Assembly (NCBI GenBank): GCA_963704035.1 | Contig: CAVPGR010000004.1 | Coordinates: forward strand, 1,338,438-1,402,437 | DNA length: 64,000 nt | Direction: 5' to 3' | Source of the DNA: an uncultured Actinomycetes bacterium | GTDB lineage: Bacteria; Actinomycetota; Acidimicrobiia; IMCC26256; JAOSJL01 | Part shown: in pieces, positions 2,796-26,739 of the stretch | How positions within the stretch are numbered: the stretch's first letter is position 1 | Layout: each line of letters starts with the position of its first letter | Translations under genes and position numbers: made by a program | Notes under the pieces: model-generated | Databases searched by the model: none | The model's input: only the letters and a program-made list of their open reading frames with translations | Told to the model about the DNA's origin: nothing

Positions 2796-2868
2796 GCCCC
2801 CTTAGCTCAGTCGGCAGAGCGCTTCCATGGTAAGGAAGAGGTCTACGGTTCAAATCCGTAAGGGGGCT
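2796..2868 (+). tRNA. tRNA-Thr (anticodon GGT)
   Basis: Acceptor GCCCCCT pairs with AGGGGGC. D arm is GCTC-AGTCGGCA-GAGC. Anticodon stem-loop is CTTCC-ATGGTAA-GGAAG. T arm is TACGG-TTCAAAT-CCGTA. Confidence 0.9.
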
Positions 2869-2894
2869 CTGTCCGGGGCTGCGACCCTGGTCAC

Positions 2895-2972
2895 GGCGGA
2901 GTAGCTCAGTCTGGTAAGAGCACGCGGCTCATAATCGCGGCGTCGCGGGTTCAAATCCCGCCTCCGCTACCA
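2895..2972 (+). tRNA. tRNA-Met (anticodon CAT, elongator-like), CCA encoded
   Basis: Acceptor GGCGGAG pairs with CTCCGCT. Anticodon loop is CTCATAA. T arm is GCGGG-TTCAAAT-CCCGC. The 3' end is ACCA. A tRNA-Ile2 identity (lysidine-modified CAT) cannot be excluded from sequence alone. Confidence 0.85.
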
Positions 2973-3031
2973 AGGCCGACGGCGGCGACGCCCGAGGCAC
3001 AGCGGTACACGGCGAACACAGGAGACGACCC

Positions 3032-4221
3032 ATGTCGAAGGAGAAGTTCGAGCGGACGAAGCCGCATTTGAATGTTGGGACGATTGGTCATATCGATCAT
3101 GGGAAGACGACGTTGACCGCTGCGATCACCAAGGTGTTGGCGGATCAGAATCCGGACGTGAATTTTTCGCCGTTTGATTCGATCGACAAGGCTCCGGAGG
3201 AAAAGGAGCGTGGGATCACGATTTCGATTTCTCATGTGGAGTATGAGACCGAGAATCGTCATTACGCCCATGTGGATTGTCCGGGCCATGCGGATTACAT
3301 CAAGAACATGATCACGGGTGCCGCGCAGATGGACGGCGCGATTTTGGTGGTGGCGGCGACTGATGGGCCGATGCCTCAGACCCGTGAGCATGTGTCTGTT
3401 GGCCCGCCAGGTCGGGGTGCCGATCGATTGTGGTGGCGTTGAACAAGGCCGACATGGTCGATGACGAAGAGATCATGGAGTTGGTGGAGCTCGAGGTGCG
3501 TGAGTTGTTGACCGAGTACGGCTTCGAGGGTGATGAGGTGCCGATCGTGGCGGTGTCTGCGTTGAAGGCTCTGGAGGGCGACGCCGATGCGGCAGCGCAG
3601 GTGTTGGAGTTGATGGAAAAGGTCGACGAGTACGTGCCCGAGCCGGTGCGTGATGTCGACAAGGCGTTTTTGATGCCGATCGAGGATGTGTTCACGATCA
3701 CGGGTCGTGGCACGGTCGTGACGGGTCGTGTGGAGCGTGGGATCGTGCATGTGAACGACGAGGTGGAGATCGTCGGGATCAAAGACACGCCGAACACGAC
3801 GGTCACGGGCGTCGAGATGTTCCGCAAGCTCTTGGACGAGGGTCGTGCGGGCGACAACATCGGTGCGTTGTTGCGTGGCACAGCCAAAGAAGACGTGGAG
3901 CGCGGTCAGGTGCTCGCCAAGCCGGGCAGTATCACGCCGCACACCAAGTTCGAAGGTCAGGTCTACGTGTTGACCAAGGACGAAGGTGGACGTCACACTC
4001 CGTTTTTCGGGAACTACCGTCCGCAGTTCTATTTCCGTACGACCGACATCACCGGCAGTATCGAGTTGCCCGAGGGCACCGAGATGGTGATGCCCGGCGA
4101 CAACACCGAGATGACCGTCGAGTTGATCAACCCGATCGCGATGGAAGAAGGCCTGTTGTTCGCCATTCGAGAAGGTGGCCGCACCGTCGGATCCGGCCGC
4201 GTCACCAAAATCATCGAATAG
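3032..4221 (+). pseudogene. tuf: Elongation factor Tu, copy 1, interrupted by two single-base insertions (3396 and 3426)
   Basis: ORF 3032..3442 ([28 protein letters not shown]...PMPQTREHV) plus ORF 3430..4221 ([13 protein letters not shown]...[14 protein letters not shown]). Alignment to copy 2 shows gtgt[c]tgttggcc and ccgatc[g]attgtgg. The frame goes 2, then 0, then 1. Confidence 0.9.
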
Positions 4222-4230
4222 GAAGAGACC

Positions 4231-4392
4231 ATGGCAAGCGACAAACGGGTCGAGGTCACGCTCGAGTGCACGGAGTGCAAGCGGCGCAACTACACGACCA
4301 CGAAGAACAAGATCAACCACCGAGAGCGGATCGAGATGAAGAAGTACTGCCGCTGGGAGCAACGTCACACGCTCCACAAGGAAACGCGCTGA
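4231..4392 (+). CDS. rpmG: 50S ribosomal protein L33
   Basis: My translation: [53 protein letters not shown] (53 aa, below the ORF-track cutoff). It starts 10 nt after the tuf stop. Confidence 0.9.
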
Positions 4393-4452: not shown

Positions 4453-5052
4453 ATGGGTGACGACAGCACCGTGGGCACAGACACCGGGGACGTTCTCGAC
4501 GAGCTGGCCGCGTCCGCACGCGACGGCGATCTGGTCGCGTTCGAGGAACTGGTCCGTCGCACCCACGCCGACACGTTCACCCTGGCTGTCAGGCTGATGG
4601 GGAACGAGGAAGACGCTGCGGACGTGACCCAAGAGGCGTACCTGCGGGCATGGAAGGGCATCCGGCGCTTCCGCGGCGACGCGCGCTTCACCACCTGGAT
4701 GTACCGCATCACGGCGAACACGGCGAACAACCACCGCGAGCGCCGGCGCCGCACTCAGGCCGACGCTCTCGACGAGCTGGCCGAGCCGATCGACCTCGCC
4801 CCCGAACGCCAGCCTGAGCTCATGGCCGAGTCGGATGAGGGAATGGTCGCTCTGTCGAGCGCACTCGACGCCCTGCCTCCGAAACTCCGTGCCGTGGTCG
4901 TGTTGAAGGACGTGTACGACCTGACCCACGAGGCCATCGCCGAGGAGCTCGACATTTCCGAGACCGCTGCCAAAGTTCGCCTCCACCGGGGCCGAAAGAA
5001 GCTGCGTGAGGAGCTCGACGCCCGGGAGGGGAGAGCCGCGCATGCCGTCTGA
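4453..5052 (+). CDS. ECF (group 4) RNA polymerase sigma factor
   Basis: ORF 4453..5052. Region 2 is FEELVRRTHADTFTLAVRLMGNEEDAADVTQEAYLRAWKGIRRFRGDARFTTWMYRITAN. Region 4 is LPPKLRAVVVLKDVYDLTHEAIAEELDISETAAKVRLHRGRKKL. Confidence 0.85.
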   Translation: MGDDSTVGTDTGDVLDELAASARDGDLVAFEELVRRTHADTFTLAVRLMGNEEDAADVTQEAYLRAWKGIRRFRGDARFTTWMYRITANTANNHRERRRRTQADALDELAEPIDLAPERQPELMAESDEGMVALSSALDALPPKLRAVVVLKDVYDLTHEAIAEELDISETAAKVRLHRGRKKLREELDAREGRAAHAV

Positions 5053-5443
5053 CGCCACGCTCGCGACCCGATCCGAACCGACCTGTGCCGAGGTGGCCGC
5101 GCTGTTGCCCGACGCGATCGACACCGCCGAGCCGTTCGACTTCGCGGTCCGGCACCACGTGGAGAGCTGCCTGCGCTGCCAGGCGGAGGTGGCGCGCTAC
5201 CGGGTCGTGCTCCGGGGACTTCACGAGCTGCGGACCCGCTATCTCGAGCCGGCTCCCGGTCTGTTGGCCGAGACACTGGCCGCCCTGGAAGCCGAGGGTG
5301 AACGTCGGGTACTGCGCTCGGTGCTCACCGGCCGTCGGCTGGCCTACGCCGGCGCCATCGGTGGCACGTTGGCGGCCGCAGGCGCCGCGGCGACCGCCGT
5401 GATGATCGCCCGCTCCCGACGCGGGCATCAGCTAGCAAGCTGA
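5042..5443 (+). CDS. Zinc-binding (ZAS-type) membrane anti-sigma factor
   Basis: The ATG at 5042 overlaps the sigma stop. An H-x3-C-x2-C motif is present (HVESCLRCQ). There is a C-terminal hydrophobic segment LAYAGAIGGTLAAAGAAATAVMIA. Confidence 0.75.
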   Translation: MPSDATLATRSEPTCAEVAALLPDAIDTAEPFDFAVRHHVESCLRCQAEVARYRVVLRGLHELRTRYLEPAPGLLAETLAALEAEGERRVLRSVLTGRRLAYAGAIGGTLAAAGAAATAVMIARSRRGHQLAS

Positions 5444-5614: not shown

Positions 5615-5688
5615 AGGGCAGTAGCTCAATTAGGCAGAGCACCGGTCTCCAAAACCGGCGGTTGGGGGTTCGATTCCCTCCTGCCCTG
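5615..5688 (+). tRNA. tRNA-Trp (anticodon CCA)
   Basis: Acceptor AGGGCAG pairs with CTGCCCT. Anticodon stem-loop is CCGGT-CTCCAAA-ACCGG. T loop is TTCGATT. Confidence 0.9.
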
Positions 5689-5689
5689 C

Positions 5690-5785: not shown

Positions 5786-6079
5786 GTGTCGCAGAATCGC
5801 CAGACCCGGCGTCTCATGGAGAAGCAGGGTGAGGGAAAGGCCCCGAAAGACAAGAGGGCCAAGGCAGCGGCCGGCGCGGCGCGCCCGAAGAAGGAGCGCA
5901 CGTCACCGCGCACCTACCTCAGCGAGGTGCGCAGCGAGCTCAAGAAGGTCGTGTGGCCCGACCGCGCCGAGGTCGTCAACTCGACGGTGATCGTCCTGAT
6001 CGCCATCGTGATCCTGACGGCGTTCGTGTTCGGCGTCGACTGGGTCTCGTCCAAGTTCATCCTCTGGCTCTACGAGTAG
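5786..6079 (+). CDS. secE: Preprotein translocase subunit SecE
   Basis: ORF 5786..6079 has a basic N-terminus followed by LSEVRSELKKVVWPDRAEVVNSTVIVLIAIVILTAFVFGVDW. It sits in the conserved position before nusG. Confidence 0.85.
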   Translation: MSQNRQTRRLMEKQGEGKAPKDKRAKAAAGAARPKKERTSPRTYLSEVRSELKKVVWPDRAEVVNSTVIVLIAIVILTAFVFGVDWVSSKFILWLYE

Positions 6080-6085
6080 GAACCC

Positions 6086-6976
6086 ATGACCACCGACAGC
6101 ACACCGGTGGGTGAGCAGCCGCCCGCGGCTCCCGACGCCCCCGCAGACGACACCGAGACCGACGAGTCCCTCCCGGAGTGGGCCCAGGTCGAGCCGACGC
6201 GCCCTGAGGACGCCACGCCCGAAGAGGCCGTGGCCACGCTCGCGGCCGTTGCCGAGACACCTGCCGAGGAACCCGAGGAGCCGGCGGAAGAGCCCGAGGT
6301 ACCGGCCGAGGCGCTGGAGAGCGCGGAACTGATCGACGTCAGTGAAGAAGGTGGCGAAGAGGAGCCTGCCGCCCCGAGCCCCTTCGACCGCCCGGGCGAC
6401 TGGTACGTCGTGCACACCTACGCCGGCTACGAGAACAAGGTGAAGCAGAACCTCGAGAGCCGCGTCCGCTCGATGAACGTGGAAGAGCGGATCTACGAGA
6501 CGGCCGTACCGCTCGAGGACGTGATCGAGTTCAAGGGTGGCCGCAAGGTCACCGTGAAAAAGAAGGTGTTCCCCGGCTACCTGCTGGTGCGCTGCCGTCT
6601 CGACGACGACGCCTGGTACGTGGTGCGCAACACACCGGGGGTCACCGGTTTCGTGGGGAGTGGTTCCAAGCCCACGCCGTTGTCGCGCAAGGAAGTGGAG
6701 TCGATCCTCGGGGTCACCCCCGACAGCACGGGCCCGGAGCGCAAGGCCCGACCGCGTTTCGGCTTCGACGTCGGCGAGCAGGTGCGCGTCACCGCCGGCC
6801 CCTTCGCCGACTTCAACGGCGCGATCAGCGAGATCGACATGGACAAGTCCAAGCTCAAGGTCCTGGTGAACATCTTCGGCCGGGAGACCCCGGTCGAGTT
6901 GGAGTTCGGCCAAGTCGCCAAGCTTGTAGGAATCAGGAGCAAAGGGAAATGGCAAAAAAAGTCGCAGCAGTTGTGA
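6086..6976 (+). CDS. nusG: Transcription termination/antitermination factor NusG with a roughly 110-aa acidic N-terminal extension; the C-terminal 16 aa are suspicious
   Basis: ORF 6086..6976 contains [19 protein letters not shown]...[32 protein letters not shown]...[11 protein letters not shown]. It then runs on as [16 protein letters not shown], overlapping rplK by 28 nt. Confidence 0.9.
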
Positions 6977-7371: not shown

Positions 7372-8090
7372 TCATGACCAGGGGAAAGAAGTACACCGAC
7401 GCGACGCGTCGCTACGACGGGGAGAACCTGCACGAGCCCGCCGAGGCTCTCGAGCTGGTGAAGACCCTCGCCACGAAGAACTTCGACGAGACGATCGAGG
7501 CGACGTTCCGCCTCGGCGTCGACCCCCGAAAGGCGGAGCAGATGGTGCGTGGCACCGTCTCGCTCCCTTCCGGCACGGGTAAGTCGGTGAAGGTGGCCGT
7601 CTTCGCCGAGGGAGATCTCGCCACACAGGCGCAGGACGCCGGCGCCGACATCGTGGGTGCCGACGACCTCGTGGAGAAGGTCGAGGGGGGTTTCGTCGAC
7701 TTCGACGTGGCCATCTCCACGCCCGAGCTGATGGGCAAGGTCGGAAAGCTCGGTCGTGTCCTCGGGCCCCGCGGGCTCATGCCGAACCCCAAGACGGGCA
7801 CCGTCACCCCCGACATCGGCGAGGCTGTCGGGGAGTTCAAGGCGGGCAAGGTGGAGTACCGCACGGACAGGCACGGCAACGTGCACGTTCCCATCGGCAA
7901 GGCGAGCTTCTCCGCTGGAGACCTGTCGGCCAACTTCCACGCCGTGCTCGAGGAGATCATGCGGGCACGCCCGGCCTCCACCAAGGGGCGTTACCTCGTG
8001 ACCGTGTCGTTGTCGTCGACCATGGGTCCCGGCGTTCGGATCGACCCGGCCCACGCGGCCGATCTGACCGAGGAGGCCGAGGCGGGGTAG
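7368..8090 (+). CDS. rplA: 50S ribosomal protein L1
   Basis: ORF 7368..8090: [59 protein letters not shown]. An alternative ATG is at 7374. Confidence 0.95.
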
Positions 8091-12995: not shown

Positions 12996-17030
<4,035 letters not shown>

Positions 17031-17071: not shown

Positions 17072-17810
17072 ATGAACGCGAACAAGGCGATTGCCGAGGT
17101 ATTCGGGACGGCGACTCTGGTGCTCGTGGCCGTCGGGACGGCGGTGCTGGCCGGGAGCTTCCTCGGGGACAGCACGCTCGGCATCGCGTTGGCGTTCGGG
17201 CTGACGTTGATGTCTCTGGCGTACGCCATCGGGCACATCTCGGGGTGTCACGTCAATCCGGCGGTCACGCTCGGCATGTGGGTCGGTAAGAAGATGGACG
17301 GCAAGGACGTGCCGCTCTACATGGTGAGCCAGGTGCTCGGCGCCCTGCTCGGTGCCGCCATCCTGTGGCTCATCGCCAACGGGGCCGACGGCTTCTCGAT
17401 CGACTCCGACGCGGCCGGCGCTGTTCGGGGCCAACGGCTACGACGACCTCTCGCCCGGTGGGTACAACCTTCTCGCAGCGCTCGTCTCGGAGATCGTCTT
17501 CACCGGCATCTTCGTGTTCGTGGTCCTCGCCACGACCACGCGGAACTTCCCGGCGGCCGCCGGCGGGATCGCCGCGGGCTTCGCGCTCGCCATCGTCCAC
17601 CTGGTGTCGATCCCCGTGACCAACACGAGTGTGAACCCGGCTCGCTCCATCGCCACCAACGTCTTTGCCGGTGGCGACTACATCCCGCAGCTCTGGCTGT
17701 TCATCGTGGCCCCCCTCGTCGGCGGGCTCCTGGCTGCCGGGCTCTTCCGGGCGCTGAACCCCAGCGAGGCCCAGGGTCACGTGGCACCCCTCGACCCCAC
17801 CTCAGACTGA
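17072..17810 (+). pseudogene. aqpZ: Aquaporin Z / MIP-family channel, +1 frameshift near 17420
   Basis: ORF 17072..17887 carries the first NPA box (GHISGCHVNPAVTLG) up to GFSIDSDAAG. ORF 17352..17810 carries LFGANGYDDLSPGGYN...PVTNTSVNPARSIATN with the second NPA box. The junction reads gcg gcc ggc [g] ctg ttc ggg. Confidence 0.85.
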
Positions 17811-17883: not shown

Positions 17884-19065
17884 ATGATCTTCAGGACACC
17901 GGTCCTCGGGGACCTGGAACGAGCGGCGATCTCGGAGATCGAGGATCGACGCAGGAGTCTTCGACACCGCGTGGGCGAACCCCGGCGCTGGTACGGGGGG
18001 CTTCGCCGACTCGTCTTCGCCAAGGCTGTCCAGGGCTCCAATTCCATCGAGGGGTACGACGCGTCTCTCGAGGACGTGATGGCGGCGGTGGACAACGAGG
18101 AGACCCTCGACGCCGACACCGAAACGATTCACGCGCTCCAGGGCTACCGGGATGCGATGACCTACGTCCTGCAGCTCGCCGACGACGATGACGTCACCAT
18201 CAACGAACAGCTCGTGAGGTCGCTCCACTTCATGATGATGAAGCACGACCTGTCGAAACGTCCCGGCAGGTACCGACAGGGCACGATCTTCGTACGGCGG
18301 GAGAGCGATGGTGAAACCGTCTACGAAGGCCCGCCTGCCGAGATCGTTCCGGATCTCATGGGCGAACTGCTCAACGACGCGCAGGAGAATGACGGGCCGG
18401 TCCTGATGCGTGCGGCGATGGCGCACCTGAATCTCGTCATGGTCCACCCCTTCCGGGATGGCAACGGGAGAATGGGCCGCTGCCTTCAGACGTTGGTACT
18501 GGCGCGCGAGCACATCGTGAGTCCCGTGTTCTCCTCCATCGAGGAGTACCTGGGTCGCAACACCCAGCCGTACTACGACGTTCTCGAACAGGTGGGCCGC
18601 GGTGAATGGCACTCGGAGGACGATGCCCGACCGTGGATTCGGTTCTGTCTGAACGCCCACTACCAGTGCGCGGAAACGATGCTGTGGCGGGTTCAGGAGG
18701 CAGAGGAGTTGTGGGATCTGTGCGGGCACCTCGCGCGTCGACAGGAGGTTGCCGAACGCGTCGTCGGCCCACTCTCGGATGCTGCCCGAGGGTTGCGAAT
18801 CCGAAATGCGTCCTACCGAGTCGCGGTCGAGGAGTCCGGGGGGGAGCAAATCGACGTCCCGACTGCCAGCCGTGACCTACGCGCGCTGGTGGCCTGCGGT
18901 CTCCTCGAATCGCACGGCGAAACCCGGGGTCGCTACTACGTCGGCTCCGCTGAGCTCCTCGACGGTTTCACGAAGATCCGAGCCAAGAAGCCGAAGTTCG
19001 AGAACGCCGATCTCTTCGGCGGGGAAGGCCAACAGCGGCTCGGTCTCGGTGACCTTGCGACCTGA
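17884..19065 (+). CDS. fic: Fic-family protein (class II, N-terminal inhibitory motif) with a C-terminal winged-helix-like region
   Basis: The core Fic motif HPFRDGNGRMGR is present. The alpha-inh motif S-x-x-x-E-G is present as SNSIEG. The ORF is 393 aa. Confidence 0.85.
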   Translation: MIFRTPVLGDLERAAISEIEDRRRSLRHRVGEPRRWYGGLRRLVFAKAVQGSNSIEGYDASLEDVMAAVDNEETLDADTETIHALQGYRDAMTYVLQLADDDDVTINEQLVRSLHFMMMKHDLSKRPGRYRQGTIFVRRESDGETVYEGPPAEIVPDLMGELLNDAQENDGPVLMRAAMAHLNLVMVHPFRDGNGRMGRCLQTLVLAREHIVSPVFSSIEEYLGRNTQPYYDVLEQVGRGEWHSEDDARPWIRFCLNAHYQCAETMLWRVQEAEELWDLCGHLARRQEVAERVVGPLSDAARGLRIRNASYRVAVEESGGEQIDVPTASRDLRALVACGLLESHGETRGRYYVGSAELLDGFTKIRAKKPKFENADLFGGEGQQRLGLGDLAT

Positions 19066-20040: not shown

Positions 20041-22134
<2,094 letters not shown>

Positions 22135-22140
22135 GCCACC

Positions 22141-22161
22141 GACCGGCCCGGCGGGCCGGTC
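22141..22161 (+). terminator. Perfect 9-bp hairpin GACCGGCCC-ggc-GGGCCGGTC between fusA and tuf
   Basis: Read directly from the sequence. There is no U-tract, so it may be an attenuator or processing site rather than a full terminator. Confidence 0.3.
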
Positions 22162-22236
22162 GTCACACGTCAGACCGAAACCCCCAACCAAGTCCCGTCA
22201 CAAGAGCCCAGAAGGACACGAGGAGCAGTCACACCC

Positions 22237-23425
22237 ATGTCGAAGGAGAAGTTCGAGCGGACGAAGCCGCATTTGAATGTTGGGACGATTGGTCATATCG
22301 ATCATGGGAAGACGACGTTGACCGCGGCGATCACCAAGGTGTTGGCGGATCAGAATCCGGACGTGAATTTTTCGCCGTTTGATTCGATCGACAAGGCTCC
22401 TGAGGAAAAGGAGCGTGGGATCACGATTTCGATTTCTCATGTGGAGTATGAGACCGAGAATCGTCATTACGCCCATGTGGATTGTCCGGGCCATGCGGAT
22501 TACATCAAGAACATGATCACGGGTGCCGCGCAGATGGACGGCGCGATTTTGGTGGTGGCGGCGACTGATGGGCCGATGCCTCAGACCCGTGAGCATGTGT
22601 TGTTGGCCCGCCAGGTGGGTGTGCCGAGCATTGTGGTGGCGTTGAACAAGGCCGACATGGTCGATGACGAAGAGATCATGGAGCTGGTGGAGCTCGAGGT
22701 GCGTGAGTTGTTGACCGAGTACGGCTTCGAGGGTGATGAGGTGCCGATCGTGGCGGTGTCTGCGTTGAAGGCTCTGGAGGGCGACGCGGATGCGGCAGCG
22801 CAGGTGTTGGAGTTGATGGAAAAGGTCGACGAGTACGTGCCCGAGCCGACCCGTGATGTCGACAAGGCGTTTTTGATGCCGATCGAGGATGTGTTCACGA
22901 TCACGGGTCGTGGCACGGTCGTGACGGGTCGTGTGGAGCGTGGGATCGTGCATGTGAACGACGAGGTGGAGATCGTCGGGATCAAAGACACACCGAACAC
23001 GACGGTCACGGGCGTCGAGATGTTCCGCAAGCTCTTGGATGAGGGTCGTGCGGGCGACAACATCGGTGCGTTGTTGCGTGGCACAGCCAAAGAAGACGTG
23101 GAGCGCGGTCAGGTGCTCGCCAAGCCTGGGCAGTATCACGCCGCACACCAAGTTCGAAGGTCAGGTCTATGTGTTGACCAAGGACGAAGGTGGACGTCAC
23201 ACACCGTTTTTCGGGAACTACCGTCCGCAGTTCTATTTCCGTACGACCGACATCACCGGCAGTATCGAGTTGCCCGAGGGCACCGAGATGGTGATGCCCG
23301 GCGACAACACCGAGATGACCGTCGAGTTGATCAACCCGATCGCGATGGAAGAAGGCCTGTTGTTCGCCATTCGCGAAGGTGGCCGCACCGTCGGATCCGG
23401 CCGCGTCACCAAAATCATCGAATAG
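22237..23425 (+). pseudogene. tuf: Elongation factor Tu, copy 2 (canonical str-operon position), single-base insertion at 23127
   Basis: ORF 22237..24069 is EF-Tu up to GQVLAKPG and is nonsense after that. ORF 23039..23425 carries the true C-terminus [27 protein letters not shown]...RVTKIIE. Copy 1 reads aagccgggcagt where copy 2 reads aagcc[t]gggcagt. Confidence 0.9.
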
Positions 23426-23440
23426 GGACAACGACCACAC

Positions 23441-23770
23441 ATGGCAGCTACCGCGACGGGTCAGAAGATCCGCATCAGGCTCAAGGCCTACGACCACGAG
23501 ATCATCGACCAGTCGACGAAGAAGATCGTCGAGACGGTCGTGCGTACCAACGCGAAGGTGCGCGGTCCCGTGCCGTTGCCGACCGAGATCCACCGGTACT
23601 GCGTGATCCGCTCACCGCACGTCGACAAGGACAGCCGGGAGCACTTCGAGATGCGCATCCACAAGCGCCTTCTCGACATCGTCGAGCCGACGAGTCAGAC
23701 CGTCGAGTCGCTCCAGCGCCTCGACCTCCCCGCCGGCGTCGACATCGAGATCAAGATCCAGGGCGTCTGA
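23441..23770 (+). CDS. rpsJ: 30S ribosomal protein S10
   Basis: [49 protein letters not shown]. Confidence 0.97.
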
Positions 23771-23856: not shown

Positions 23857-24363
23857 TCAGTGAGCTGCGAAGAGCTCTTCGATGAAGAAGCGCGCGGCGG
23901 TGTCCAGCCGGTCGCCGAACACTCGCTCCGCTACTTCGAGGACTTCGGCGGATGTCTCCAGGTTGAGTTCCCCCGCCAGGAGGCGCACGTCGTCCTCGTC
24001 CTCGCCGACTCGGTGTGCGAGGACCTTGAGCGCCAGGAGGATCTCGGGCGACGCCACGAAGACACGTAGGCCCGGCTCGTCGAAGACCGAAGCAGCATTC
24101 GGGTCATCTGCGGCGAGGAAACCCTTCACGGCGTCGTTGAGCCAACCTTGCGGGAGCCCGAGGTCGCCTGCTACTTCGTCGGCCGCCTCGTAGATCGCCA
24201 TCTTCGGTTCGAACACAGCGTCGATGTCACGCGTGGAGCGACGCGGAGCGTAGGCGAGAGCCATCGCCGCACCGCCGACGACGTACATCTCACCGACGAC
24301 GTCGCGGCTTTCGAGCACCCGGGCCAACGCCTCGAAGGCGCGCAGAATCTCGTCGCGGTCCAT
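23857..24363 (-). CDS. Small pol-beta-fold nucleotidyltransferase, AbiEii/MenT/DUF6036-like putative toxin
   Basis: Internal start [53 protein letters not shown] (a GG-x14-DID NTase signature). The protein is 168 aa. Its ATG shares one base with the upstream gene's stop (TGATG). Confidence 0.65.
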
Positions 24364-24815
24364 CAGCAGCGGTCGAGGAAGCCTTCGGCGACGAAAATGC
24401 CGCGGCGACGAAAGGCTGCGGGGCTCTGAGCAACGGCCAGAGCGCGGAATCCCGGTGTGTCGCTCAGGAACCAGAAGTGGTCGAGGAAGCGATCGTTTCC
24501 CCGGGTCCAGCCCGGCGTCGGGAGGCGGGCCCGCACGGCGATCCATTCCCCGAGCCCACCGAAGAGCGCATCCACCCGGTCGTCACCGCAGAGCGTGGGC
24601 TCTCCTTCGATTGCGTGGGTGAGATCCTCCTTTGTCGCTGCGAACTGGAGCTCGTCGATGAGCTCGAAAACGGCGGGCTTGAAGGATTCACCTGCCAGCA
24701 CGCGATCTGAAGCACCTGCCAGCGACTGGGTGAGCGGCCGGGGGTGGTCGGCCACCCAGTCACGGACCGTGCCGGGCCCCGTCCGGGCAAGAAGACGGCC
24801 AACGGGAGAAACCAT
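24363..24815 (-). CDS. Hypothetical protein, putative cognate partner (antitoxin) of the NTase; start uncertain (alternative ATG at 24989)
   Basis: ORF 24363..24989: MVSPVGRLLARTGPGTVRDWVADHP...GNDRFLDHFWFLSDTPGFRALAVAQSPAAFRRRGIFVAEGFLDRC. I recognise no motif. It is translationally coupled to the NTase. Confidence 0.5.
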   Translation of the reverse strand: MVSPVGRLLARTGPGTVRDWVADHPRPLTQSLAGASDRVLAGESFKPAVFELIDELQFAATKEDLTHAIEGEPTLCGDDRVDALFGGLGEWIAVRARLPTPGWTRGNDRFLDHFWFLSDTPGFRALAVAQSPAAFRRRGIFVAEGFLDRC

Positions 24816-24998
24816 AGGCTGAAGGTAGTCGCCCGAACTGTCGAGGCGGGGCGGTTTCGCCCGGGGCGGGTGGGGCCGATACACTGCCCGTTCGGCGCTG
24901 GGGCCCTTCCCACGGCCCCGGATCGCAGATCGGACCACCTCGACAACCGAAGTCTGCTCAGGCCGCCCGCGGGCGGAACCAGGCGGCACAACCGAACC

Positions 24999-25072: not shown

Positions 25073-25726
25073 ATGGCAGGCAAGGGGATCCTCGGGCGCA
25101 AGCTCGGAATGACCCAGGTCTGGGACGACGAGAACCGGGTCGTACCGGTGACGGTCATCCAGGCCGGGCCCTGTCGCGTCGTGCAGCTCAAGACTCCCGA
25201 GCGCGACGGCTACTCCGCGGTGCAGCTCGCGTTCGGTGACGTCAAGGAGTCCAGGCTCAGCAAGGGCGAGCTCGGCCACCTCGCTGCTGCCGAGGCGCCA
25301 CCCAGCAGACATCTCGCCGAATTGAAGGTCGACGACCTCGAGGGTTTCGAGATCGGACAGACCATCGCCGCCGACGTGTTCGAGAGCGGAGAGCTCGTCG
25401 ACATCTCGGGTATCAGCAAGGGCAAGGGCTTCACGGGAGTGATGGCCCGCCACAACTTCAAGGGACAGCCGGCCTCGCACGGTGCGCACAAGGTCCACCG
25501 CAAGCCCGGTGCCGTCGGCGCGTGTGCCACGCCCGCACGGATCTTCAAGGGCCAGAAGATGCCCGGACGTCACGGCAACGCCAAGACCACGACGCTCAAC
25601 CTCGAGGTCGTCGAGGGCGATGCCGAACGCAACCTCTTGTTGATCAAGGGATCTGTTCCCGGCGCCAAGGGCTCGGTCGTCTTCGTGCGCAACGCCGCCA
25701 AGCCGCGGGTGAGGAGCGCGTCGTGA
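25073..25726 (+). CDS. rplC: 50S ribosomal protein L3
   Basis: MAGKGILGRKLGMTQVWDDENRVVPVTVIQAGPCRVVQLKT. Confidence 0.97.
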   Translation: MAGKGILGRKLGMTQVWDDENRVVPVTVIQAGPCRVVQLKTPERDGYSAVQLAFGDVKESRLSKGELGHLAAAEAPPSRHLAELKVDDLEGFEIGQTIAADVFESGELVDISGISKGKGFTGVMARHNFKGQPASHGAHKVHRKPGAVGACATPARIFKGQKMPGRHGNAKTTTLNLEVVEGDAERNLLLIKGSVPGAKGSVVFVRNAAKPRVRSAS

Positions 25727-26449
25727 CCGCCGCTCTCGAGGCCGACGTGCGCGCCCAGGACGGCACGAAGAAGGGAAGCGTGGAGCTGCCCGAGGCGATC
25801 TTCGGGATCACGCCCAACGCTGCTGTGCTCCACCAGGTCGTCACCGCCCAACTCGCCGCAGCCCGCAGCGGAACGGCAAGCACCAAGACCCGCGCCGAGG
25901 TGGCCGGCGGCGGTGCCAAGCCGTGGCGGCAGAAGGGAACCGGGCGCGCCCGCCAGGGTTCCATCCGGGCCCCGCACTGGGAGGGCGGCGGAATCGCCCA
26001 CGGTCCCCGACCCCGCGACTACACCCAGCGCACACCGAAGAAGATGGTCCGTCTCGCTCTGCTGTCCGCGCTGTCGGACCGTGCGTCGGAGAGCCGGGTG
26101 CTCGTCGTCGACTCCTGGGACTTCCCCGAGCCCAAGACCAAGGACGCCAAGACCACCCTCGAGTCACTCGAGCTCCGCGGCACCGACGAGAAGAAGGACC
26201 CGCGGGTGCTGCTCGTTCTCGACCGCGGCGAGGTCAACACCTGGAAGTCGTTCCGCAACCTCGGTCGCAGCGTCCAGATCGTCGTGCCCGAGGAGCTCAA
26301 CGCGTACGACGTCCTCGCCAACGACTGGCTGGTGTTCTCACAGGCCACCCTCGACACCACCACGGCGCGTCTGAGCGGCACAGCTGACTCGGCGACTCCG
26401 CCGACTCCGCGACTCCGCCGACTCCGCCGACTCCGGGGACGCGTCATGA
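25723..26449 (+). pseudogene. rplD: 50S ribosomal protein L4; as given, the reading frame runs into rplW without a stop (indel inside a 9-bp tandem repeat)
   Basis: The GTG at 25723 overlaps the rplC stop (GTGA). The product reads VTAALEADVRAQDGTKKGSVELPEAIFG...KPWRQKGTGRARQGSIRAPHWEGGGIAHGPRPRDY. Frame +1 after about 26410 reads [12 protein letters not shown] and stops at TGA 26447..26449, forming ATGA with the rplW start. Confidence 0.8.
26386..26437 (+). repeat. Tandem repeat GACTCCGCC (units of 9,8,8,9,9,9 nt) at the rplD 3' end
   Basis: The units are gactcggcg actccgcc gactccgc gactccgcc gactccgcc gactccggg. The two 8-nt units break the (DSA)n reading frame. Confidence 0.85.
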
Positions 26450-26739
26450 ACCGCGAAGCGCGCAGCATCATCCGCGAACCGGTCGTGTCCGAGAAGTCGT
26501 ACGCGGCCTTCGACCGCAACGTCTACACATTCAACGTGGCTCCCGACGCCAACAAGGTGGAGATCGCCCAGGCGATCGAAACGATCTTCGGCGTGCGCGT
26601 CACGAAAGTGAACACGATCAACCGTCGCGGCAAGAAGATCCGCGACCGTCGCACCGGAACGTTCGGGCAGCGCAGTTCGCAAAAGCGCGCCATCGTGTCG
26701 CTCGCCGAGGGCGACTCCATCGAGATCTTCGGAGGCTGA
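26446..26739 (+). CDS. rplW: 50S ribosomal protein L23
   Basis: [63 protein letters not shown]. Confidence 0.93.

Follow-up and report, generated by a model that had tools for sequence, protein, structure and literature searches.

Why should the two tuf genes of a bacterium, which encode elongation factor Tu (EF-Tu), be written in codons unlike those of every gene around them? The question is raised by a 64-kb stretch of contig CAVPGR010000004.1 (64,000 nt in all, hereafter the window) from the genome of an uncultured bacterium of the class Acidimicrobiia (assembly GCA_963704035.1, hereafter W). A preliminary description, made from the letters alone, had reported there two near-identical tuf copies with foreign codon usage and had suggested a mosaic or xenologous origin followed by homogenisation of both loci. 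Here, we show that what sets tuf apart is a loss of cytosine from its sense strand, which affects this gene only, is confined to its coding sequence and is strongest at the 5′ end. The anomaly is real, strong and lineage-wide and, as far as literature searches show, undescribed, since these found no description of it in tuf; we regard it as a moderately interesting lead, not as an established new system. We put at roughly 0.55 the probability of a joint reading, in which removal of cytosine in place, maintained by selection, combines with gene conversion between the copies and with errors of assembly. The first of these components, an in-place, selection-maintained and tuf-specific cytosine removal, is on its own likewise somewhat more likely than not.

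Cytosine removal bounded by the tuf coding sequence

Third-position composition and codon counts, compared with those of reference genes, justify the word foreign as a description. Histidine is written CAT 9 times and CAC twice in tuf, against 3 CAT and 96 CAC in 14 reference genes (p=2e-9); TTG makes up 20 of the 26 leucine codons (77%), against 26 of 472 (6%) in the reference genes (p=4e-18); and aspartate is GAT 12 times and GAC 15 times, against 19 and 328. The fractions of codons ending in C, T, G and A (C3, T3, G3 and A3) are 0.31, 0.18-0.19, 0.46 and 0.05 in tuf and 0.52-0.56, 0.06-0.07, 0.33-0.38 and 0.03-0.05 in fusA, rpoB and rpoC (chi-square p=6e-25 for third positions of tuf against the three genes together). 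In the other 59 tabulated open reading frames (ORFs) of the window, C3 is 0.49 (standard deviation 0.047, minimum 0.39) and T3 is 0.082 (standard deviation 0.029, maximum 0.16), and tuf does not fall within this normal range but is a true outlier. Indeed, among 242 coding-like ORFs from 11 loci, the only real genes with C3 <0.33 are tuf copies.

The anomaly does fade toward the 3′ end, as had been noted by eye: C3 is 0.12-0.14 over the first codons (0.12 for codons 1-40) and climbs to 0.5-0.55 by the end of the gene. In sliding windows, the rise is monotonic in W, in the sister genomes G1 (GCA_027494115.1) and G2 (GCA_041394025.1) and in a further relative, L086, in which C3 runs 0.09, 0.17, 0.27, 0.35, 0.45 and 0.59 from 5′ to 3′; in another relative, L088, it is an overall rise. 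Outside the coding sequence, the pattern ends. The genes fusA, rpsL, rpsG, rpsJ, rpmG and rplK and the tuf leaders are normal in every lineage examined, and this includes downstream neighbours that begin only 0-15 nt beyond the tuf stop codon. The features on which this comparison rests are as follows, with fusA, directly upstream of copy 2, as the internal control:

2796..2869, + strand: tRNA-Thr (GGT), 5′ of tuf copy 1 (ARAGORN, Rfam)
2895..2972, + strand: tRNA-Met (CAT), 59 nt 5′ of tuf copy 1 (ARAGORN, Rfam)
2973..3031, + strand: leader of tuf copy 1, C-rich and T-poor by composition (C 0.35-0.37, T 0.09-0.10)
3032..4221, + strand: tuf copy 1, tufB-type context, 1190 nt as written, frame broken (Pfam on the corrected product)
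3394..3426, + strand: cluster of 5 differences from copy 2, including both extra bases (alignment)
4231..4392, + strand: rpmG, 9 nt past the tuf stop, normal codon usage (C3 0.43, T3 0.02)
5615..5689, + strand: tRNA-Trp, followed by secE (5786-6079) and nusG (6086-6976)
20041..22134, + strand: fusA, normal codon usage (C3 0.56, T3 0.06, G3 0.33)
22135..22236, + strand: fusA-tuf spacer and leader of copy 2, C-rich (C 0.39-0.41, T 0.06)
22237..23425, + strand: tuf copy 2, str-operon context, 1189 nt as written, frame broken
23127..23127, + strand: extra T, CC[T]GGGC, which shifts the frame of copy 2
23441..23770, + strand: rpsJ, 15 nt past the tuf stop, normal codon usage (C3 0.53, T3 0.05)

What takes the place of the missing cytosines was read from homologous codons of a normal gene, that of L087, and of depleted genes. 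In four-fold families, C gives way to G (GCC→GCG, GTC→GTG, ACC→ACG, CCC→CCG), and GGC→GGG/GGT and CGC→CGG also occur in depleted tuf; in two-fold families, C gives way to T (e.g. CAC→CAT); and the exchange CTC→TTG disposes of both cytosines of the codon. When C fractions were pooled over 14 depleted and 8 normal tuf genes, those of the depleted genes came to 0.07-0.21 in four-fold families, 0.28 for His, 0.39 for Asp and 0.67-0.76 for Phe, Ile and Asn (Phe 0.76). Because the four-fold families are the most depleted and Phe, Ile and Asn the least, the purge appears to be fullest where the decoding cost is least. The usual rule in highly expressed genes is a C bias in two-fold families (PMC7374057), and tuf does the opposite here.

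A change in the genetic code itself was also considered. A preprint assigns ACA to Asp in one Acidimicrobiales clade, but this does not hold for the window: of the 3 ACA codons of copy 2, the 2 that were checked both stand at conserved Thr positions.

Descent and integrity of the two tuf copies

The genome of the window retains both ancient EF-Tu loci, each in its conserved context, and the positions and surroundings given for them in the preliminary description hold: copy 1 follows the genes for tRNA-Thr and tRNA-Met and precedes rpmG, tRNA-Trp, secE and nusG, whereas copy 2 lies in the str operon, with rpsL, rpsG and fusA upstream and rpsJ downstream. In G1 and G2, tuf occupies the same two contexts. 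The window copies are 98.5% identical, across the coding sequence only; the dozen or so differences counted by eye come, in a global alignment, to 15 substitutions and 3 single-base indels, and exact identity reaches from 4 nt before the ATG to 1 nt past the stop codon, with unrelated flanks beyond. Over W, G1 and G2, the limits of the repeat fall 4 to 6 nt before the ATG (-4 to -6) and 0 to +2 nt past the stop codon. Paralogues differ at 15 nt in W, 11 nt in G1 and 6 nt in G2, and orthologues at 53-66 nt between W and G1 and at 109-122 nt between either of these and G2. With paralogues closer than orthologues in all three genomes and the repeat ending with the coding sequence, the earlier proposal of gene conversion confined to the coding sequence stands. 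The corrected product (see below) carries the Pfam domains GTP_EFTU, GTP_EFTU_D2 and GTP_EFTU_D3 in order (218, 69 and 131 bits, residues 10-393), and the database proteins closest to W EF-Tu are EF-Tu of Acidimicrobiia metagenome-assembled genomes. As far as sequence comparison can show, the tuf coding sequences were inherited vertically and have been homogenised by conversion events that do not extend beyond them. Duplication and conversion of tuf are known biology, and conversion has already been documented in six phyla including Actinobacteria (PMC6053082).

A few of the differences between paralogues span more than one base. A switch of serine codon family, TCG versus AGC/AGT with the residue unchanged, separates the window copies at tuf codon 131 (3422-3426 / 22627-22629) and, at codon 299, the two copies of G1 (L002 10895-10897); at codon 205 of copy 1, there is a whole-codon difference, ACC/GTG (Thr/Val).

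How widely the anomaly is distributed bears directly on its origin. Our genome and metagenome scans yielded, in the matches listed, a broad sample and not the closest relatives, which were obtained by protein search and contig look-ups. Both tuf copies of G1 and of G2 share the anomaly, with fusA, rpoC, rpsL, rpsG and rpsJ normal, and it recurs, confined to tuf, in at least six further, independent lineages of Acidimicrobiia, among them Microthrixaceae (L009), Ilumatobacteraceae (L027), Acidimicrobiales (L045), L050, L086 and L088, with C3 as low as 0.08 and T3 at 0.45 in L045; it is absent from L025, L058, L013 and L087. Among the matches listed, about 16 of 92 sampled high-G+C tuf loci have C3 <=0.32, the bulk being at 0.5-0.6, and nearly all of these ~16 loci are most similar to W EF-Tu and Acidimicrobiia-like. 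The depleted L086 and the normal L087, with EF-Tu 93% identical, are each other's closest relatives by their flanking ribosomal proteins, and the depleted L088 is more distant from both; the EF-Tu identities among L086, L087 and L088 (0.93, 0.88, 0.88) track those of the flanking ribosomal proteins. Because a depleted lineage thus pairs with a normal one while another depleted lineage stands further away, the trait appears to change in place.

A milder tuf shift (C3 0.2-0.4, G3 0.4-0.6) was seen at loci L035, L046, L026, L085, L061 and L041 of some high-G+C Gammaproteobacteria, Alphaproteobacteria and Acidobacteriota, in which fusA, where present, has C3 about 0.5. In those groups, the shift may be ordinary codon optimisation.

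These comparisons leave little room for the mosaic or xenologous origin proposed initially, in which the 5′ two-thirds of tuf would have been imported by recombination and then copied to the second locus. Such an import would explain a composition sharply unlike that of the neighbours and switching exactly at the boundaries of the coding sequence; the C-terminal third is relatively closer to that of the Acidimicrobiia lineage L006 (0.868 versus 0.815 for the N-terminal part), the synonymous sites of tuf have diverged between W and G1 twice as much as those of neighbouring genes (11.6% versus 5.4%, p=1e-5), and the whole-codon differences TCG/AGC and ACC/GTG could be small imports. However, EF-Tu points to the same kin as its neighbours do: in rough neighbour-joining trees and identity ranks, the nearest relatives of W agree for EF-Tu and EF-G, for L086, L087 and L088 the flanking ribosomal proteins agree with EF-Tu, and the EF-Tu phylogeny is, at the resolution of these trees, congruent with those of its neighbours. 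Nor does the composition resemble that of a donor, given that A3 stays at 0.02-0.05 where T3 reaches 0.18-0.22, that C is replaced mainly by G and that it matches no plausible donor genome; since codons ending in A are no more frequent, a donor with lower G+C content does not fit the pattern. Furthermore, depleted tuf genes of differing sequence are found in many lineages of Acidimicrobiia, L086, although depleted, is nearest to the normal L087 and not to another depleted allele, and the C3 gradient appears smooth, not stepped, in sliding windows of five genomes. What the comparisons show is a codon anomaly that apparently arose in place and not by transfer, and we consider import very unlikely.

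As written, neither tuf interval is the intact coding sequence for which it had been taken, their lengths of 1190 and 1189 nt not being divisible by three. In copy 1, there is one base too many at 3396 (C) and another at 3423 (A; the alignment would equally allow G at 3426), and its frame as written hits a stop codon at 3440-3442; copy 2 contains an extra T at 23127, and the resulting wrong-frame reading continues to 24069. Removal of the three extra bases gives a gene of 1188 nt and a 395-aa EF-Tu that is 99% identical to the products of two intact genes of the sister genome G1; both loci of G1 and of G2 hold an intact 395-aa tuf, with protein identity to W of 99% (G1) and 95% (G2). Comparison of ~30 conserved genes revealed no split reading frames in the window other than those of the tuf copies and of one aquaporin gene. 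All four frame breaks read as both alleles of a synonymous polymorphism set side by side: copy 1 has GTG[T]CTG where relatives have TTG or CTG (the aligner marks the C at 3396 as extra) and CCG[A]TCG where copy 2 has AGC and relatives TCG, and copy 2 has CC[T]GGGC where relatives have CCG or CCC. The three extra bases in tuf are most likely errors of the assembly consensus, derived from a mixed population and aggravated by cross-mapping between the two copies.

The fourth break lies in an aquaporin (MIP) gene between rpoC and rpsL (17072-17810, + strand), which is split near 17422 at GC[T]GTTC; the gene is intact in G2 (244 aa) and absent in G1. The G1 assembly in turn leaves rplA and rplL unannotated (L002 about 14360-15255 and 15844-16428), and the single-base gaps inside these genes, opposite window positions 7690 and 9069, are frame errors of its own.

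The frame breaks could also be taken at face value, both tuf copies being real pseudogenes or being expressed through programmed frameshifting. Both frames are indeed broken as written, the frameshifts are concentrated in tuf (p=0.002), and the W lineage shows faster synonymous change with a drift to genome-typical C. Against this stand the essential nature of EF-Tu, with no third copy found in the window, the 99% identity of the corrected protein to its sister, with change almost wholly synonymous, and the two-allele form of every site, including that in the single-copy aquaporin gene; the sister assemblies have intact tuf and carry their errors elsewhere. Taking the breaks at face value is, in our view, the least credible of the explanations considered here.

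Probable selection on the tuf message and its possible benefit

If the composition of tuf changed in place, it could reflect either the mutations that the gene receives or selection among them. Paralogue-specific variants, which have not been homogenised, gained C 15 times and lost it 5 times; among the 32 that could be polarised, a small sample, C→T accounts for 2, and most are T→C and G→C. Since the split of W and G1, 20 changes have been fixed in both copies of W and 12 in both copies of G1, and the W lineage has, relative to its sister, a net change of +12 C and -13 G, with tuf drifting back to genome-typical codons. Because both the young variants and the W fixations gain C, the background pressure would be toward C while the long-term state is C-poor, and because tuf stays C-poor under such pressure, we infer a balance between mutation and selection. 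The doubled synonymous divergence of tuf between W and G1 (11.6% against 5.4%) is consistent with such turnover. The C-poor state would accordingly be one that selection maintains on the translated tuf message.

The opposite view, that transcription-associated mutation alone shapes the gene, supposes that C deaminates on the single-stranded non-template strand and that G+C pressure then turns the resulting T to G. The direction of the skew is as expected, with sense-strand C down and T and G up; a simple model with an 8-12-fold higher rate of C→T roughly gives the C:T:G proportions of W and L086; and a C→T change turns CTG into TTG without altering the residue. In E. coli, Beletskii and Bhagwat reportedly showed in 1996 that transcription induces C→T changes on the non-template strand. 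However, deamination of this kind should not respect the limits of a coding sequence: the leaders are co-transcribed yet C-rich and T-poor (C 0.35-0.41, T 0.06-0.10), rpmG and rpsJ, which start 9-15 nt past the stop codon (0 nt in L050) with no sign of a terminator in our scans, are normal, as is fusA within the shared operon. Moreover, most of the young variants specific to one paralogue go from T or G to C, C→T accounting for only 2 of 32, and the retention of C varies strongly among two-fold families (Phe 0.76, His 0.28). Mutation as the whole cause is thus improbable.

As for the benefit that selection would secure, the leading candidate, which we put forward tentatively and from base composition, is the avoidance of Rho loading. 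The main experimental predictor of Rho termination is the presence of long stretches with C in excess of G, and in Bacilli, the need to avoid Rho has been shown to shape codon choice across the genome (PMC13323073). Between normal and depleted tuf, the property that shifts most is the C/G balance: C exceeds G in only 0-14% of 150-nt windows of depleted tuf genes, compared with 51-71% in normal ones and 51-89% in most other genes in the window; mean positive CG skew is 0.000-0.012 in depleted and 0.026-0.079 in normal tuf; and the antisense strand of depleted tuf is strongly C-rich, with a CG skew of up to 0.46. Loss of long C>G stretches would deny Rho its loading sites on tuf RNA, and tuf, the most heavily expressed gene, would thereby escape premature termination. 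The 5′ emphasis would follow because loading early in the gene truncates the transcript and loading near its end does not, and also because the nascent RNA would be most exposed before the first ribosome catches up.

A narrower version of this idea, avoidance of pyrimidine-C dinucleotides, the ligand of the Rho primary site, gave mixed results: in the pooled genes, Gly is purged no less than the other four-fold families, and Phe and Ile keep C best. Two further candidates concern RNA structure. Weaker folding of the message was rejected as the main driver: mean folding energy per nucleotide in 120-nt windows is just a little weaker, at -0.34 against -0.37 to -0.39, and in the most depleted 5′ third, the value equals that of the normal orthologue (L086 -0.332, L087 -0.328). 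A more open ribosome-binding site was likewise rejected, the unpaired probability over positions -18..+12 being 0.28-0.59 in depleted tuf, 0.26-0.46 in normal tuf and 0.38-0.58 in other genes, with complete overlap of the ranges.

Selection could also act through decoding or through RNA decay. In slow growers, perhaps only tuf reveals the true optimal codons, which would then end in G or T. The enrichment of CGT and GGT, classic preferred codons, accords with this, and so does a faint shift in the same direction in rplK, rpmG, secE and rplP (C3 0.41-0.45, G3 0.44-0.48). Phe, Ile and Asn, whose codons begin with two weak bases, keep C, and His and Asp take T, a division that fits an optimum of codon-anticodon strength. 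Yet one tRNA reads both NNC and NNT in two-fold families, GGG and CGG rise, a gradient along the entire gene is not expected from tRNA supply, and the trait is present in one lineage and absent from another that is 93% identical; furthermore, a C bias in two-fold families of highly expressed genes was found in all 29 prokaryote families analysed (PMC7374057). Translational selection in this sense is unlikely, if a little less so than the mutational account. About as improbable as the latter is protection from a cytosine-dependent RNase, be it the actinobacterial RNase E or a ribosome-dependent toxin active in translated regions. RelE-type toxins are the basis for the latter idea, and if the nuclease depended on the ribosome, the restriction to the coding sequence would make sense, as possibly would the 5′ emphasis, but we know of no C-specific toxin of this kind. 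For RNase E, a study of the mycobacterial enzyme reports cleavage within RNCNU, 5′ of the C, and a requirement for C at the site (PMC10641625). However, the density of RNCNU is not reduced (3.0-3.2 per 100 nt in W, G1 and L086 versus 3.0 in L087), because U rises as C falls, and a preference taken from mycobacteria may not be that of Acidimicrobiia.

Several observations weigh against our own interpretation, selection for cytosine removal with Rho avoidance as its candidate benefit. The leaders just upstream of tuf are C-rich and G-poor; T3 rises from 0.06 to at least 0.18, though Rho of B. subtilis favours T-rich RNA; and Phe and Ile, in which NNC forms a TC dinucleotide, have lost less of their C than His and Asp. 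The ratio T/(C+T) takes similar values in two-fold and four-fold families, so that some extra C→T input is possible. In the window and in the loci of relatives, the bias is found in tuf alone and not across the coding strands of the genome, and the Rho model does not account for this restriction, with ribosomal protein genes spared; arguably, selection is visible just in the gene that is expressed most. Of the four frameshifts, three lie within the 2.4 kb of tuf (p=0.002 if they were uniformly distributed), a clustering that we attribute to cross-mapping of the repeat and to higher synonymous diversity. Finally, the base of comparison is narrow, comprising the 64-kb window and 7-21 kb per relative, and all strongly depleted examples come from metagenome-assembled genomes.

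Surrounding genes, implications and known systems

The window has a G+C content of ~66%, and in its first 41 kb, nearly all genes are on the + strand. ARAGORN found four tRNA genes (tRNA-Tyr, tRNA-Thr, tRNA-Met and tRNA-Trp), and mapping of a relative's proteins gave the order tuf, rpmG, ECF sigma factor, small ORF, secE, nusG, rplK, rplA, rplJ, rplL, rpoB, rpoC, rpsL, rpsG, fusA, tuf, rpsJ and rplC. Simple promoter and terminator scans and Rfam found only the tRNAs around both tuf copies. The ECF sigma factor gene and the small ORF, possibly for an anti-sigma factor (4453-5440, + strand), lie between rpmG and tRNA-Trp, an arrangement kept in G1, G2, L086, L087 and L088. Between rpoC and rpsL, 3 kb upstream of tuf copy 2, is a gene for a 393-aa Fic/DOC-family protein (PF02661, 59 bits; 17884-19065, + strand), which is absent from this site in G1 and G2; some Doc toxins inactivate EF-Tu. 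The S10 operon is split between rpsJ and rplC by two minus-strand ORFs (23857-24989), one of which encodes a DUF6036 nucleotidyltransferase, the pair being possibly toxin-antitoxin-like. At the same junction, G1 carries FG-GAP/CARDB and peptidase C14 genes, and G2 carries MMPL and HTH-rhodanese genes; because the cargo differs between relatives, the junction looks like an insertion hotspot. Further downstream, rplD and rplW share one frame without an intervening stop codon, as a single ORF of 405 aa (25522-26739, + strand), whereas in G2 they overlap in different frames, so that in the window, either the two genes are truly fused or the assembly contains a further error close to where rplD ends.

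It is possible, although we would not count on it, that in a large part of the Acidimicrobiia, tuf has been recoded to be nearly free of wobble C, as a gene-specific 'hidden code'. If so, the recoding defies both genomic G+C pressure and the near-universal preference for NNC, is graded from 5′ to 3′ and is gained and lost quickly between close relatives. It would imply a cytosine-sensing process that acts on translated RNA only, such as Rho behind an uncoupled polymerase or an unknown ribosome-linked nuclease, and the pair of depleted L086 and normal L087 would be a natural experiment for identifying that process. More generally, the pattern points to selection on nucleotide content distinct from adaptation to tRNAs. 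If the benefit is Rho avoidance, protection from termination would extend from the genome-wide purine bias of Firmicutes to a gene-specific C/G skew in high-G+C Actinomycetota. There are practical consequences as well. The tuf gene is the textbook case of 'optimal' codons, a reference for codon adaptation indices and a phylogenetic marker; a class-wide departure, to CAT, GAT, TTG and NNG where the neighbours use C-ending codons, would distort expression predictions that take tuf as their reference. Composition-based detectors of gene transfer will flag such tuf genes as foreign, just as the preliminary description did. Finally, two-copy genes in long-read metagenome assemblies can carry frame-breaking consensus errors, a warning that the present case illustrates.

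How, then, does this tuf pair compare with known systems? Long-lasting concerted evolution of tufA/tufB pairs is said to have been described by Abdulkarim and Hughes in 1996 and by Lathe and Bork in 2001. The window copies share with such pairs the two conserved contexts, the str operon and the tRNA-tuf-secE-nusG locus, as well as homology limited to the coding sequence and paralogues that are closer than orthologues (PMC5485169; PMC6053082). Nothing essential is different: in W, rpmG lies between tuf and secE, an ECF sigma factor gene is inserted, and 19 kb separate the two copies, which share a strand. Second tuf genes acquired by horizontal transfer likewise have a composition unlike that of their neighbours, but their proteins are divergent and phylogenetically misplaced, whereas the window copies are near-identical, stand in the ancestral contexts and group with the host lineage. 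Examples of such acquisition reportedly include Enterococcus tufB, from work of Ke et al. in 2000, and Streptomyces tuf3. The skew left by transcription-associated deamination is similar in that G exceeds C and T exceeds A on the non-template strand; this link between transcription, deamination and strand skew is said to go back to Beletskii and Bhagwat in 1996 and Francino and Ochman in 2001. By contrast, the skew in W stops at the start and stop codons and spares the leaders and co-transcribed neighbours, and its young variants run toward C.

Two kinds of selection on codons remain for comparison. Standard codon optimisation favours C in two- and three-fold pyrimidine-ending codons and U in four-fold families (PMC7374057). 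The tuf genes described here agree with it in the enrichment of CGT and GGT and in that tuf codon choice responds to selection; however, their two-fold families are reversed (CAT, GAT, TAT), their four-fold families turn to G and not U, and Leu turns to TTG. The closest parallel in form to the proposed Rho avoidance is the 'hidden code' of Dierksheide et al. 2026 (PMC13323073), in which synonymous choice also removes C>G stretches from the sense strand, the antisense RNA is C-rich and ordinary codon preference is overridden. That code is a purine bias, spread genome-wide in bacteria with runaway transcription; in the tuf genes, a single gene is affected, C is exchanged for G and T and not for purines generally, so that T rises, the bias is graded from 5′ to 3′, and the link to Rho is one suggested by sequence.

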